A stretch of DNA of 64,000 nt from an uncultured bacterium. Lineage in GTDB: Bacteria; Hydrothermota; UBA3073; NMUJ01; CBEVQO01. The stretch is from contig CBEVQO010000003.1 in NCBI GenBank assembly GCA_965552055.1, forward strand, positions 128,001 through 192,000, read 5' to 3'. The notes under the pieces were generated by a model, which ran no database searches, had not been told where the DNA came from, and saw only the letters and a list, made by a program, of their open reading frames with translations. Positions 1-6,414 of this stretch are shown here, piece after piece; the first letter of the stretch is position 1, and each line of letters starts with the position of its first letter. The position numbers were made by a program, and so were the translations under genes.

Positions 1-2
1 AG

Positions 3-455
3 AAAGTTCTTACATTGGATGATTTAAGGAAAGTCTGGATAAATAAAGAAAGCAGGAAGAAATTTTTAGATGATTTAAAAGCAAAGAGCATAAATCCAGA
101 GTTAATAGCACAATTACTTGATAGACCTGATGCAGATGCTTTTGATATTATAGCTCATGTAGCTTTTGATGCCCCTATCTTAAGTAGAGATGACAGAGCC
201 CAAGCTTTGTTGAATGAAAAACAGCAATTTATTAACTCTTTCAATGAGACCGCAAAGAAAGTTTTGCTAAATCTCATAGAAAAATACAAGATTGGTGGCA
301 TTGAGGAAATTTCTCCCGAAGCTCTGGAATCTCCAGACATCCAGAAGATTGGCAAGTTGAAGGAGATCATAAATTCTTTTGGCGGAATAGACAATCTTAT
401 ACACGCACTTGAGAGTATTTCTCAAGGTCTTTATGAAGCTGGAGGTGTTAGATAA
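3..455 (+). CDS. hsdR: Type I restriction enzyme R subunit, C-terminal part (EcoEI_R_C-like); 5'-truncated by the window edge
   Basis: Frame is open from the window start. DADAFDIIAHVAFDAPILSRDDRA ... LLNLIEKYKIGGI ... SFGG resembles the EcoEI-type HsdR C-terminus. Stop overlaps the hsdM start (TAATG). Confidence 0.85.
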   Translation, partial: KVLTLDDLRKVWINKESRKKFLDDLKAKSINPELIAQLLDRPDADAFDIIAHVAFDAPILSRDDRAQALLNEKQQFINSFNETAKKVLLNLIEKYKIGGIEEISPEALESPDIQKIGKLKEIINSFGGIDNLIHALESISQGLYEAGGVR

Positions 456-1891
456 TGGATAGACAAACATTAAGATCAAAGTTCAAGCAGACTTGCGATT
501 TGTTGAGAAATGAGATCGCATCAGTTAATTACATAATCCAGCTGTCGTGGATGCTTTTCTTGAAACTTTATGACGATTTGGAAGATGAGAGAGAATTGAA
601 AGCAAAGTTAAAAGGAGAAACGTATCAAAGGAACATACCTTCTCCTTACAGATGGAAAGATTGGGTCCATAAAGACTGGAGAAGTGAAGAACTCATAGAT
701 TTTATTAACAACGAACTATTTCCTTTCCTCTCCAAATTGGACGGTGAAGGTGAGAGAGAGTTAATTGCGACCATTTTTAGCGGTAAGGAAATCCAGAATT
801 TCCTGAAAGATGGTTACAAGTTAAGGGAAATTGCATTGTTGCTTGATGAGTTGAAGTTCAGAACAAGAGAAGACATTTATGTTATTTCTGCACTTTATGA
901 AGAACTTTTACCTGAGATTGGGGAGATGGGTAAATATGCAGGCGAGTATTACACTCCAAGACCCGTCATAAGATTAATGGTTAAAATTGTCAATCCAAAA
1001 CTTGGTGAGATAATTTTGGATCCGTTCTTGGGCTCTGCTGGGTTCTTAATTGAAAGTTATAATCATATTCTAAGGAGCAAAGATGTTTTCACAACAAAGG
1101 AAACCAAAATATTGCATAACATGTTTTACGGACAGGAAAAGAAGGATGTCCCCTATCTTATAGGAATAATGAACCTTCTTTTGCACAATCTTCCAACATC
1201 TCACATTTACAAGGTTGATACTTTTGCTGAGGATGTAAGGAAAATTCAGGAAAAGGATAGGGTTGATGTTATTCTCACTAACCCTCCATTTGGTGGCAAG
1301 TTTGATGAGAGATTTAAAGCTAACTTTCCTGTGAAAAGCTCTGACACGGAGTTAATGGCTTTGCAGTATGTAATGAGAAAAATAAAGCAGGGCGGAAGGG
1401 TCGGAATAGTTGTTCCGGAGGGTGTTTTATCCAACACTACCGGACCTTTTGTAAGGGTTAGAAAAGAACTTCTTGAAAATTATAATGTTCATACAATTAT
1501 TTCTTTACCCAAAGGGGTTTTTACCGCGTCTGGAAAAACTCCTGTCAAAACCAATCTTCTGTTCTTTGATAAAACAAGACCAACAGAGGAAATATGGTAT
1601 TACGAGATTCAACCCCCTAAAGGCATGAAGAATTTTACCAAAACAAGACCGATGAAAGATGAAGACTGGCAGGATTGCTACGAAAAATGGAAAAATAGAG
1701 AAATAAGCGAAAACTCGTGGATTGTAAAGATTGATGAAATTGACAAGGAAACTTATGAATTAACCCCAAGAAATCCTAATAAATTGAAAAAGAAAGAATA
1801 CAGACCCGCAGGAGAGATTTTAGAAGATGTTTTGAAAGAGGAAAGGGAAGTTATGAAATTGTTTGAGGAATTAAAGGGGTTGTTAAGATGA
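455..1891 (+). CDS. hsdM: Type I R-M N6-adenine DNA methyltransferase (M subunit)
   Basis: QLSWMLFLK N-terminal motif, GEYYTPR, motif I DPFLGSAGFL, motif IV TNPPFGG, VVPEGVL. Confidence 0.96.
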   Translation: MDRQTLRSKFKQTCDLLRNEIASVNYIIQLSWMLFLKLYDDLEDERELKAKLKGETYQRNIPSPYRWKDWVHKDWRSEELIDFINNELFPFLSKLDGEGERELIATIFSGKEIQNFLKDGYKLREIALLLDELKFRTREDIYVISALYEELLPEIGEMGKYAGEYYTPRPVIRLMVKIVNPKLGEIILDPFLGSAGFLIESYNHILRSKDVFTTKETKILHNMFYGQEKKDVPYLIGIMNLLLHNLPTSHIYKVDTFAEDVRKIQEKDRVDVILTNPPFGGKFDERFKANFPVKSSDTELMALQYVMRKIKQGGRVGIVVPEGVLSNTTGPFVRVRKELLENYNVHTIISLPKGVFTASGKTPVKTNLLFFDKTRPTEEIWYYEIQPPKGMKNFTKTRPMKDEDWQDCYEKWKNREISENSWIVKIDEIDKETYELTPRNPNKLKKKEYRPAGEILEDVLKEEREVMKLFEELKGLLR

Positions 1892-3207
1892 AAATCCTTG
1901 ATGATTTCAACATGAAATCCAAAAAGCCCTGGGAAGTTGAAGGAATTGAGTGGAGAGAGGTGAGGCTGGGAGAGGCGTGTATTATCAATCCCCAAAGATC
2001 AGAAGTTAAGCATTTGTTAGCTCGAAACATTGAAGTTTCTTTCATACCAATGGAATATGTAAATGATAACAAAGGAAAAATAGTAAAGTTTGATGTTCGC
2101 CCAATTAGGGAAGTGTATAAGGGATATACATATTTTAAAAATGGCGATGTATTGTTTGCCAAAATAACTCCTTGTATGGAGAATGGTAAAAGTGCTGTAG
2201 CATATAACCTGAAAAACGATATTGGTTTTGGTTCTACGGAATTCCATGTTTTAAGACCAAAAGAAAGCATATTGTCTGAGTTTATATTTTATTTTGTTAG
2301 AAGAAAAAAATTCAGAAATTTGGCCAAACTTCATTTTACAGGGACTGTTGGGCATAAAAGAGTTCCAAAAGAATTTCTAATTAATTCAAAAATCCCCATC
2401 CCATTCCGCAACGGCAAGCCAGATTTAGAGACTCAAAAGAAAATCGTTGAATATATTGAGGCAAACTTTTCAAGAATTGACAAAATTCTGGAGAAGAAAA
2501 AGAAAGAACTTGAGCAACTTGATGAACTCTGGGAAAGCGTTTTAGAGCAGGCATTCAAGCCAAAGAAAGGAGAGGAGTGGAAGGAAGTGAGATTGGAAGA
2601 AGTTGCATATATTGAAAGCGGTAACAGACCTAAAGGAGGAGTTAAAAAATACACTGATGGAATTCCTTCAATTGGTGGAGAACATTTAAGTTATGATGGA
2701 GCTTTTTCTTTTGAAAAATTAAAGTACGTTCCAGAGGATTTTTATGAGCAAAGCAACAAAGGCAAAATCAAAAAATATGATATTCTAATCGTCAAAGACG
2801 GTGCAACAACTGGAAAAACAGCTTTTGTAGATGATAATTTCCCATTTAAAAGAGCTATGGTTAATGAACATGTATTTTTATGTAGAATTTCAGAAGAGAG
2901 AATTTATCCAAAATTCGTTTTTAGATTTTTAATGAGTAGAGAAGGGCAAAGTAGAATTTTAAAAACAAAAGGCGGAACAGCGCAAGGAGGAATTAATAAA
3001 CGTTTTTCAAAATTAGTAAAAATTCCTATCCCATTCCGCAACAACCATCCAGACCTTGAAAAGCAAAAAGAAATAGCGGATTACCTTGACAGTGTTTATG
3101 AGAAAATCAAAACACTGAAAGAGAAAATCCATAAGCAGATAAACCTGCTTGAGGAGATGAAAGAAAGTATTTTGGATGAGGTGTTCAATCATGATGAGAC
3201 TAAATGA
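1888..3207 (+). CDS. hsdS: Type I R-M specificity subunit with two TRDs
   Basis: Repeated conserved blocks EWREVRLGE/EWKEVRLEE and KIPIPFRN..PDLE.QK.I flank two variable domains. TRD1 has AKITPCMENGK...GSTEFHVLR. ATGA overlap with hsdM. Confidence 0.95.
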   Translation: MKILDDFNMKSKKPWEVEGIEWREVRLGEACIINPQRSEVKHLLARNIEVSFIPMEYVNDNKGKIVKFDVRPIREVYKGYTYFKNGDVLFAKITPCMENGKSAVAYNLKNDIGFGSTEFHVLRPKESILSEFIFYFVRRKKFRNLAKLHFTGTVGHKRVPKEFLINSKIPIPFRNGKPDLETQKKIVEYIEANFSRIDKILEKKKKELEQLDELWESVLEQAFKPKKGEEWKEVRLEEVAYIESGNRPKGGVKKYTDGIPSIGGEHLSYDGAFSFEKLKYVPEDFYEQSNKGKIKKYDILIVKDGATTGKTAFVDDNFPFKRAMVNEHVFLCRISEERIYPKFVFRFLMSREGQSRILKTKGGTAQGGINKRFSKLVKIPIPFRNNHPDLEKQKEIADYLDSVYEKIKTLKEKIHKQINLLEEMKESILDEVFNHDETK

Positions 3208-3940: not shown

Positions 3941-5216
3941 AACAATTATCAGCAATGTAAATTACTACATAGGTGGAGGCACCCAAGTTCCTATATCGAA
4001 TACTGGTGAGTTAATCAGGAAATTAAGAGAATACGGTCCTTACAAGAAACCTTCACTTCGGCATAACAGGATCGCGTTTGTGTATCTTAATCGAGGAGAT
4101 TGGAGTAGTATAATTGAAAAACTAAAAACGCAAATCGCTGAAAAACTTGATGATGTTTGGCATATTAACAATACAGATTTTTCAGATTTTACTTATAATT
4201 CTTCGGATTTTGATTCCATCGAATCTCAAATTGATAAAGCTATAGATACTGGTGTTGATGGAATTATGCTTATTCTTCCAGGATATATGCCAACAGTTTA
4301 CTACAAACTTAAATCATATCTAATCAATAATGTTCCATCACAATTTATGCGATACGATATACTTTCAAGTCGAAATTTAAGATTTTACGTCGATAACCTA
4401 CTTGTTCAATTTATTTCAAAACTTGGAGGAAAACCATGGATTTTGAATATTGACCCAGAAAGAGGCTCAGACATTATAATAGGAACCGGAGCTACACGAA
4501 TTGATAATGAAAATCTATTTTGTTTCGCCATGGTTTTTAAAAAGGATGGAACTATGTTGTGGAACGAAATTTCACCAATAATCAGAAGAGACCAATATCT
4601 AACGCATTTAAAAGAAATTATTGAAAAAGCTGTTAGAGGTTTTAGAGAGAATAACCCCGATTGGCCTGTTGAGAAACTAACCTTACATGTGAGTGGAAAA
4701 AGACCTAAAATAAGAGACGGTGAAACAAAAGTTTTGGAAGATACAATTGAAGAGCTAAAAGGACAAAGTCTAATATCTCAAGATGCAAAATTTGCTATAC
4801 TTCATTTAAATGAAACACATCCTTATTGGATTATGGGTGATTCCAACAATAGGTATCATCCATATGAAGGAACAAAAGTAAAACTGAACTCTAAAAGGTA
4901 TCTACTTGCACTTTCACAACCACACCAAGAGCGATATGGATTAGAAATGGTGACCCCAATAAAACCATTGAGCGTTGAGATAGTTAGTCATAACTGGACA
5001 TCAGAGGAATTTTATCCCTTTGCTCATGAGGTCTTAGATGAGATATATTACCTGTCAAAGATGAACTGGAGAGGATTTAGAGGTAGAAACCTACCGGTTA
5101 CGGTAAATTATCCAAAATTGGTTGCAAGAATAATAGCAAATGTAAATCGTTATGGTGGTTACCAAATAAATACGGAGGGCAATCGTCCATTACGAACAAC
5201 CCCGTGGTTCCTATGA
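3930..5216 (+). CDS. ago: Prokaryotic Argonaute, MID-PIWI only, catalytically inactive (AfAgo/AfPiwi-like), 428 aa
   Basis: MID 5'-phosphate pocket YYKLK...PSQF...KLGG. PIWI C-terminus [18 protein letters not shown]...PWFL. Catalytic positions degenerate (IIIGTG for IGxD, LHVSG for HRDG). GAGGTG SD at 3917-3922 supports ATG 3930 rather than 3837. Confidence 0.95.
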
Positions 5217-6259
5217 TAAACGCAAAATTATTTATGAATAAGATTAACGAAATAGAAAAACGAATGGACTATGTTATTGAGAATTGGGAATCTGATAAAA
5301 GAATTACTCTTCAAGAAAAAAGGTTTGTTCTTTCTGCATACATTCATGGTTTATATAAAAACAAAAAAGTAAAAGATTTAGCAAAAAACAATCTCCATGG
5401 AATCAAAGAAAGAAGAAGATTAGATTTTGAAACTATTTTAACGGCAATAGCATCAGCATTGATTGTTGATGCGGATTTCTCAGAATATTGGAATAAATTA
5501 AAAGAGAGGATAGATAGAAGTTCTCCTACTGAGAAATCTAACTTAATAATTCAATTTTTGGTCATATTAACCCCAAATACCATCAAAAAAATCAATGATG
5601 TGCAATATATTAAAACACTGCTGAAAAGTCTAAAAAGACAAGATACTGAAAAGAAATTATTTTCCTATTGGATAGAAAAATGTCTATTTTCAGAGAAAGG
5701 GCAAATAACTATAAGCCAAAAAGATATTAAATATTTAAAAGAATATTTACTTTGGGAGCTTGTAAATTCTGAAGATGATGAACATCAAAAGGAAGAGATG
5801 AGAAAAAAATTTATTCCAGAGATGTTGGATTACAAAGTTGATAGTATTGATTGGATTGTCTTTTTAATCTATCAATTTCTTAAGAAAAACAAGATATATA
5901 TTATTACAGAAAGCGAACTGGACAGGAAACTCAAAAAAGGTATTAAATCAAGAATAAACAAAAAAGTTTGGTTTCCAGTTGGGTCATCAATATTATTTTT
6001 AATTTTAAAATTGTGGAAAGAAAACATTATAACTTTGGAGACTTTAGGACAAATTGCTTTATTAATGGTAGGGATTGCCTTACTTGTTTTTGAAGAATAC
6101 TTGCCTACTAAGAACATAAAGAAAAAGAAAATAACATCAGGATTACCAGCTACAGCTTTAATAATAGGAGTGTTACTTTGGAATTTCGAAATCTCATTAA
6201 TGCTTAATTTTATTATATCGATCATAGGAAGTATAATAATATGGTTGTTTACAGAATGA
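5213..6259 (+). CDS. Hypothetical membrane protein, about 4 C-terminal TM helices; candidate Argonaute effector, 348 aa
   Basis: ATGA overlap with the Ago stop. Charged N-terminal ~250 aa, then hydrophobic segments [68 protein letters not shown]. Confidence 0.7.
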
Positions 6260-6280
6260 CGCCGCCGAGCCGAACTTTTC

Positions 6281-6348
6281 ACTCGCTGTCGTTCACTACG
6301 GTGCTACCGCACTCGGACAACAAGCGAGTATGCGTTCGCTTCGCGCAT
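6281..6348. repeat. GC-rich inverted repeats/hairpins at the right end of the defence island
   Basis: ACTCGCT(6281-6287) pairs with AGCGAGT(6323-6329), with inner GTGC-TACC-GCAC; second hairpin ATGCG...CGCAT (6330-6348). Confidence 0.5.
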
Positions 6349-6414
6349 CCAGACCTTTACGGCTTCACATGTTCACTAAACTTAGGCGAAATTGCGGGAT
6401 TGCAGAGAAAAACC

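Follow-up and report, generated by a model that had tools for sequence, protein, structure and literature searches.

An Af1317-type putative membrane effector encoded with a split Argonaute and a type I restriction-modification system between cassette-type ends

The window analysed here is a 64,000-nucleotide stretch of the genome of an uncultured bacterium of the Hydrothermota (contig CBEVQO010000003.1, positions 128,001 to 192,000, forward strand). Its left part holds most of a six-gene block, hsdR-hsdM-hsdS-AgoN-Ago-effector, which spans 8,523 bp between cassette-type ends and has the effector gene as its last member (Table 1). The hsdR gene starts approximately 2.1 kb to the left of the window, at G000:C3:125918. 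Argonaute is split here between genes for 249 and 428 amino acids and is not single-chain as in bAgaM systems. The MID-PIWI half is 74% identical to AfAgo (314 of 426 aligned residues), and AfAgo residues Y123, K127, Q137, K163 and the terminal L427, which we take to be those that bind the guide 5' end, are all conserved in it.

Table 1. Genes and other features of the six-gene block (window coordinates, except where the contig C3 is named)
Feature	Position	Strand	Basis or detail
Cassette-type left end	C3:125858-125882		25 bp, 60 bp before hsdR
hsdR 3' end (type I restriction subunit, 845 aa)	1..455	+	NCBIfam restrict_EcoAI, 739 bits, cut-off 550; ORF in L025
hsdM, type I methyltransferase	455..1891	+	PADLOC MTase_I, E 4.5e-137; Pfam N6_Mtase
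hsdS, type I specificity subunit	1888..3207	+	PADLOC Specificity_I, E 5.6e-80; Pfam Methylase_S
AfAgo-N orthologue (N-L1-L2 half of split Argonaute), intact, 249 aa	3191..3940	+	phmmer to PDB 8ok9_C AfAgo-N, E 3.5e-111
AfAgo orthologue (MID-PIWI half), 428 aa	3930..5216	+	phmmer to PDB 1w9h, E 1.8e-220
Af1317-type putative membrane effector	5213..6259	+	58% identity to 337-aa ORF after AfAgo-identical gene; model; fold search; hydropathy
Effector parts: predicted partial (alpha/alpha) toroid; linker helix; four hydrophobic helices	residues 1-230; 227-247; 250-347
Right-hand inverted repeat and hairpin, complementary to the left end before hsdR	6261..6312	+	12/14 bases complementary to left-end repeat
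attC-like site, degenerate in the window genome	6313..6392	+	R'' box 6314-6320; R' box near 6381 without first G; 19.2 bits

Co-occurrence of the effector with Argonaute was assessed in 16 metagenome loci that carry the effector gene. Because they are close kin from similar samples, these loci are not independent. By tblastn, Ago was found directly upstream in 14 of the 16. A fifteenth locus (L007) retains just 41 upstream bases, whose translation corresponds to the C-terminus of Ago, and the remaining one (L014) is cut inside the effector gene. In all 15 assessable loci Ago thus lay directly upstream, and the ATGA overlap of the two genes was kept in every one. The order AgoN-Ago-effector was maintained across related loci, and of the 9 loci in which AgoN is present, 8 have hsdS ahead of it. 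The exception was L013, a metagenome locus whose Ago is identical to the PDB AfAgo protein over 427 residues; the restriction-modification (RM) genes and attC are missing there, and the effector is still beside Ago. The distribution of the effector gene is patchy, with one occurrence in 201 genomes of the window's phylum, its own.

Several further observations were made on these and other loci. Of the 6 loci with both hsdM and hsdS, 5 (L004:2183-2761, L005:1061-2725, L010:1072-2739, L011:1261-2710 and L015:1030-2685) have additional genes between the two that belong to no curated family, including a gene for approximately 552 amino acids in three loci and a DUF6731-like pair in L011; further defence genes may be carried in this variable slot. 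Broken copies were also seen, with an in-frame stop in the Ago of L039 (976-2256), frameshifts in AgoN of L013 (948-1654) and L008 (597-1357), and a frameshifted effector gene at L016:310-1336. They stem either from the loss of a system that is costly to keep or from errors in assembly. A second cluster, judged defence-like from its translations, lies approximately 7-15 kb to the left of the window (L025:36-8139, minus strand) and contains a DNA methyltransferase-like gene, two AAA ATPase-like genes and DUF-type partners. An Ago search of genome contigs returned 7 distant long-B Agos, each followed by what reads as a Sir2-like ORF.

Elsewhere in the genome, an integron-like array (G000:C9:28375-34888; L026, L027 and L060) contains a co-oriented IntI/XerA-like recombinase, then an RM-like gene pair and two further genes, each unit being followed by an attC-like site (three sites). 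A lone attC-like site is located at C7:32580-32669.

The ends of the six-gene block resemble those of cassette 3 in the C9 array. The 25-bp start of that cassette has one other occurrence in 2.2 Mb (at most 4 mismatches), which is the left end of the block; the chance expectation of this recurrence is 0.0004. In both the block and C9 cassette 3, the first six bases of the left end complement the far-end R'' box at 6 of 6 positions, and an inverted repeat pairs the two ends. The 9-bp core common to left and right ends occurs four times in the genome, at both ends of the block and both ends of C9 cassette 3. The sites downstream of the effector were scored with a model whose six training sites lie elsewhere than beside the effector gene; these were judged attC-like and did not come from a curated attC model; this independent training replaced a first model that had been built from the same sites it scored. 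Among 699 control stretches, the 15-bit threshold was passed by the window site and three training sites alone. With the independent model, an attC-like site of at least 15 bits followed the effector in 9 of the 16 loci. Three of the other seven have 121 bases or fewer of downstream DNA, L011 and L015 have an R''-like box only, and L013 and L016 have nothing. Fold z-scores of the attC sites were -2.3 to -2.8 in L002, L010 and L012, and the fold was not significant in the window (linear state, z 0.47), L001 or L008. On these data the simplest reading is that the six-gene block is likely one 8.5-kb integron-type cassette, inserted alone.

This reading competes with one in which the block is a short-inverted-repeat element or an RM-type insertion beside a stray attC-like repeat, and not a true integron cassette. 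That alternative, which we regard as rather unlikely, draws on the size of the block, since 8.5 kb and six genes are far above described defence cassettes, and on the state of its ends, the window attC being decayed and the left end being found in this genome only (0 of 60 relatives). It also gains from the C9 recombinase, which is closest to TIGR02249 and NF040815, falls below both curated cut-offs (223.6 vs 265 and 216.7 vs 220) and lacks profile positions ~175-244, the middle of the IntI profile, so that it looks internally shortened. No excised circle or end-to-end joint was present among the matches listed, which came from assembled contigs. However, the exact complementarity of the first six bases to R'' is what cassette structure requires, it is found in the block and in C9 cassette 3 alike, and the recurrence of the 25-bp left end far exceeds its chance expectation. 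Moreover, a further attC-like site stands behind the next gene after the block in L004 and L010.

No integrase is adjacent to the six-gene block. In L004 (7202-10925), a gene for a 1205-aa RecD2-like helicase stands directly after the attC of the block and before an attC-like site, forming a candidate for a very large cassette of 3.7 kb. Contig coverage, which in four runs fell off at both block ends, was not counted, because 330-bp bins cannot part a cassette edge from the start of hsdR. Detection limits on cassette length may contribute to the absence of large defence cassettes. In the text available for Darracq et al. (10.1101/2024.07.02.601686), defence systems in cassettes are said to 'never exceed 2 components', with large loci absent, and 'Argonaute' and 'pAgo' have 0 occurrences in the main text of that paper. 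The literature on integron cassettes with Argonaute or defence genes, and on large cassettes, yielded no such case at the level of listings, and supplements may list related systems. The cassette-type packaging together with type I RM is the new part of this arrangement.

We next consider the effector gene itself. As the initial annotation had stated, it is a real 348-aa ORF that is ATGA-coupled to Ago, its ATG overlapping the Ago stop (5214-5216); an alternative in-frame GTG start at 5204 would give an effector of 351 amino acids. The absence of a Sir2, TIR or PD-(D/E)xK domain, which had been read from the letters, was borne out by family scans in which the effector matched no such family: the sole Pfam match was NfeD_membrane (E 0.021, under its cut-off), and there were matches to 0 PADLOC families and 0 NCBIfam families. 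The proposal of about four transmembrane (TM) helices agrees with four hydrophobic segments that start near residues 252, 277, 307 and 327 and have Kyte-Doolittle 17-residue means of 1.70, 2.34, 1.82 and 2.47. These segments coincide with helices 250-270, 275-296, 310-324 and 328-347 of the structural model, a part with low pLDDT. The four-segment tail is the minority form in the family, being found in 7 of the 30 proteins aligned; in the remaining 23, among them the Af1317-like protein described below, the tail is different and shorter, with 2-3 hydrophobic segments.

Within the family alignment, the region of window positions 6080-6259 contains the two tail types, and some proteins, for example P0013 and P0022, join helix 250-270 of one type to the end of the other. 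Such mixed tails suggest recombination within the effector gene. The gene is also more AT-rich than Ago, as had been noted, with a GC content of 27.2% compared to 34.5% for Ago and 35.6% for the genome; GC is as low in just 0.4% of 2119 same-size genome windows. Third-position GC is nevertheless equal in effector and Ago (24.4% and 24.7%), and the AT-richness is therefore due to amino-acid make-up. This match ruled out a separate origin of the effector gene, an idea that came from its AT-richness.

The gene downstream of AfAgo, which had been proposed for inspection, proved to be informative. In L013, the AfAgo-identical gene is followed by a 337-aa ORF that is a relative of the window effector, with 58% identity over 322 residues (E 2e-117). 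We identified this ORF as Af1317 by its position and by the length stated in PMC10954474 (Manakova 2024), where Af1317 is described as a protein of 337 amino acids encoded by the gene after AfAgo in Archaeoglobus fulgidus. In its available text, that paper finds Af1317 similar to SiAga2 (EMBOSS Needle global score 93.5) and makes it the type member of a group of putative effectors that have a conserved alpha-helical domain and a TM, TIR, HEPN or PD-(D/E)XK tail. The same text leaves the function of Af1317 open, with no function test and no fold named for the helical domain. On the basis of the 58% identity, the position and the 337-aa length, the window effector is, by sequence, an orthologue of Af1317. 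A new effector family was thereby ruled out, as the protein is a relative of an effector already described. The suggestion that it is the output module of the AfAgo clade, offered as an inference, is in line with the presence of Ago upstream in every assessable locus, the preserved gene order and the Af1317 orthology, and the idea had already been published in the accessible part of PMC10954474. No functional study of Af1317 or any orthologue was found in the literature covered, outside of which subscription papers lay.

The homologue search returned 36 proteins including the query, all at least 50% identical. A family profile of 30 members (mean column identity 68%) was used to search 1.84 billion representatives and gave 14 matches at E<=0.001, with best scores of 70-551 bits and lengths up to 360 amino acids; no SiAga2-like distant match was found in this search. 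The effector family is thus small and isolated by sequence, because there were only 14 matches among 1.84 billion and none was longer than 360 amino acids. The best E values of the profile were 0.095 against PDB sequences and 0.76 against the ESM Atlas, Foldseek found nothing at E<=0.001 in PDB and viral models, and the profile had no relative in genome contigs or viral contigs. Longer fused forms of the effector were absent from 7,989 candidates, which is weak evidence. By hhalign, the probability of a match to bAgaM-like, bAgaN-like and HEPN-type effectors was 0.5-1.8%, where controls between those groups were equally blank; the value for five bAgaM proxies (TM proteins encoded after long-B Agos of Bacteroidota, unverified as og_100 members) was 0.5%, again with blank controls. 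A complex prediction for Ago and effector residues 1-240 had a score of 0.01 and, having been run without nucleic acid or AgoN, counts neither way.

The structural model of the effector is all-helical, with residues 1-230 mostly at pLDDT above 70 and a poor tail. When residues 1-235 of the model were searched with VIA-align, the matches were (alpha/alpha) toroids (best Z 12.3, rmsd 3.9, 232 aligned residues), and according to the tool a Z of ~12 for a helical domain is within the range that common arrangements can give. The effector of L039 was used for comparison; it follows the Ago that came closest in 401 genomes of another phylum, a split Ago with a stop. This protein, P0050, has a Hypoth_Ymh, weakly HEPN-like C-terminus and was modelled from 61 of 80 homologues. 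Its N-domain fell in the same toroid class (best Z 15.4, rmsd 3.7, 229 aligned residues), and by manual count 28 of 50 listed fold-match entries were common to it and the window effector, so that the likeness of the two soluble domains is one of shared fold matches and not of directly superposed models. For the soluble domain, the prediction is thus a partial (alpha/alpha) toroid, a fold to which the N-domain of this HEPN-like split-Ago effector also models. The earlier notion of a distinct effector family holds by sequence alone, where the family is small and isolated; in predicted fold, the soluble domain resembles that of the HEPN-like effector. The models are consistent with one Ago-docking module that carries swappable toxic tails. 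Against a universal docking module, the available text of PMC13535254 has the bAgaN N-domain absent from TM effectors. The fold call for the soluble domain is new, and the protein itself is a new member of a described effector type.

Work on related systems offers a model for how such an effector could act. In the parts of these papers that were available, the AfAgo-N/AfAgo pair is reported to bind guide RNA and target DNA; in the SiAgo system, Aga2 binds the target-bound Ago-Aga1 pair only and depolarises the membrane (PMC11788926; 10.1101/2021.12.09.471704); killing by EaBPAM needs Ago and the TM region (PMC10620215); and in EcBPAN the N-terminal helical domain of the effector is both Ago dock and autoinhibitor, being released on target-bound Ago (PMC13535254). 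We infer the same chain as in these relatives (SiAgo, EaBPAM, EcBPAN) for the window locus. The AgoN and MID-PIWI Ago pair would load a guide and bind matching invader DNA, and the guide- and target-loaded pair would then dock on the predicted (alpha/alpha)-toroid cytoplasmic domain of the effector. Docking would open or destabilise the membrane helices, making the TM tail the toxic part, and the infected cell would depolarise and die by abortive infection. The type I RM system of the same block would presumably be the first line of defence, with the Ago system as back-up. What we observed in support of this model is the Af1317 orthology, the fixed gene order and coupling, the hydrophobic tail and the conserved MID residues. 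By analogy, the protein is best explained as an Af1317-type partner of a split long-B Ago and as a likely toxic membrane effector that causes depolarisation and abortive infection, to which we assign a probability of about 0.7. Points against this explanation are the low confidence of the TM region in the model, the difference between the two tail types and the lack of a detected sequence link to bAgaM-like, bAgaN-like or HEPN-type effectors in comparisons whose controls failed too.

Other roles for the effector were weighed. It could be a membrane anchor without toxicity, keeping the Ago pair, and possibly the type I enzyme as well, at the site where foreign DNA enters, so that the invader is blocked or cut and no death ensues. 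A hydrophobic tail joined to a large scaffold-like soluble domain would suit this role, as would the tight link to type I RM in 8 of 9 loci and the exchangeability of the tail sequence within the family. However, because in the sister system a HEPN-like domain is attached to the same predicted fold, the C-terminal position looks like a toxic slot, and both tested TM partners of inactive Agos (SiAga2 and EabAgaM) kill cells in the published accounts available; we therefore consider an anchor improbable. We give still less credence to the idea that the toroid is an Ago-switched enzyme, for instance a lipid-modifying one like terpene cyclases, which the TM helices merely place at the membrane. 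Although squalene-hopene cyclases, type II terpene cyclases and sugar epimerases are among the best fold matches, and residues Q34, E35, R69, E73, E182, R197 and D213 are invariant, identity to the fold matches is ~3-14%, the barrel is partial (~230 residues vs 340-400), the matches extend to non-enzymes (transcobalamin and complement thioester domains), and the family members are too similar to one another for an invariant position to point to a catalytic site. Finally, the co-occurrence is in part a matter of common history, since every relative derives from one mobile block, yet that the gene is a mere passenger of this block with no Ago-system role is scarcely tenable, given ATGA coupling in 15 of 15 loci, its persistence with Ago in L013 without RM genes and attC, and the generality of an effector-like gene in this position for long-B Agos.

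We see even odds for a wider proposal. In it, type I RM and a split Ago whose effector kills through the membrane form a complete two-layer island that moves between bacteria and archaea of vents as one integron cassette of 8.5-10 kb, which would explain the low-GC AfAgo island of A. fulgidus; the truncated (alpha/alpha)-toroid of the effector would be a general Ago dock on which TM, HEPN or nuclease tails are swapped. If true, such a cassette would exceed the described defence cassettes several times in size, it would be too narrow to regard integrons as carriers of one- or two-gene defence systems alone, and a concrete route for Argonaute systems between bacteria and archaea would be at hand. 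AfAgo has served as a structural model for two decades, during which no biological output became known. The present locus offers all three genes intact and, with ~30 natural orthologues and tails of two types, makes a test of the effector easy to design, and the fold call for the helical domain provides a testable docking model for non-APAZ Argonaute effectors.

With respect to known systems, the block is like integron defence cassettes in having defence genes followed by an attC-type site and a 5' end complementary to R'', as far as the available texts describe them (10.1101/2024.07.02.601686; 10.1101/2022.02.06.479319), and differs in its six genes and 8,523 bp from the at most 2 components reported there. 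Another split long-B Ago operon was noted on a Haloplanus rallus plasmid (L032; NZ_CP034344.1, 1919-5525), where the downstream protein is acidic, 438 amino acids long and has hydrophobic C-terminal segments, with no match to the effector family profile. In bAgaM/BPAM systems (Song 2023; PMC10620215, available text), a long-B Ago likewise precedes a TM protein, and Ago-dependent death requires the TM region of that protein. The Ago of those systems is single-chain, and the Bacteroidota proxies, of ~295 amino acids, had no detectable profile match in a comparison whose controls were blank as well. In EcBPAN/EcbAgaN (PDB 23wq; PMC13535254, available text), target-bound Ago is the dock for an N-terminal helical domain of ~220 residues, which controls a toxic domain at the C-terminus; the latter is a PD-(D/E)XK nuclease, unlike the TM tail of the window effector.

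SiAga2 of Sulfolobus islandicus similarly accompanies a split inactive Ago as a protein of its own, in which a soluble domain is combined with TM helices at the C-terminus, a likeness that in sequence terms is known from the global-alignment score in PMC10954474 only. According to the accounts available, SiAga2 differs in having 2 TM segments, a tested basic pocket near the N-terminus that binds anionic phospholipids, and a gene upstream of Aga1. In the window family, K10, K16, R17 and R37 are basic in 93-97% of the 30 members, as are many other positions. The system of Af1317 in A. fulgidus matches the window locus in operon order, gene overlaps and the combination of a helical domain with a TM tail, at 58% identity between the effectors. 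The four-segment tail of the window effector contrasts with the shorter tail of Af1317, and the window locus has an intact AgoN, type I RM and cassette-type ends, whereas the AfAgo-identical L013 lacks the RM genes and the ends.
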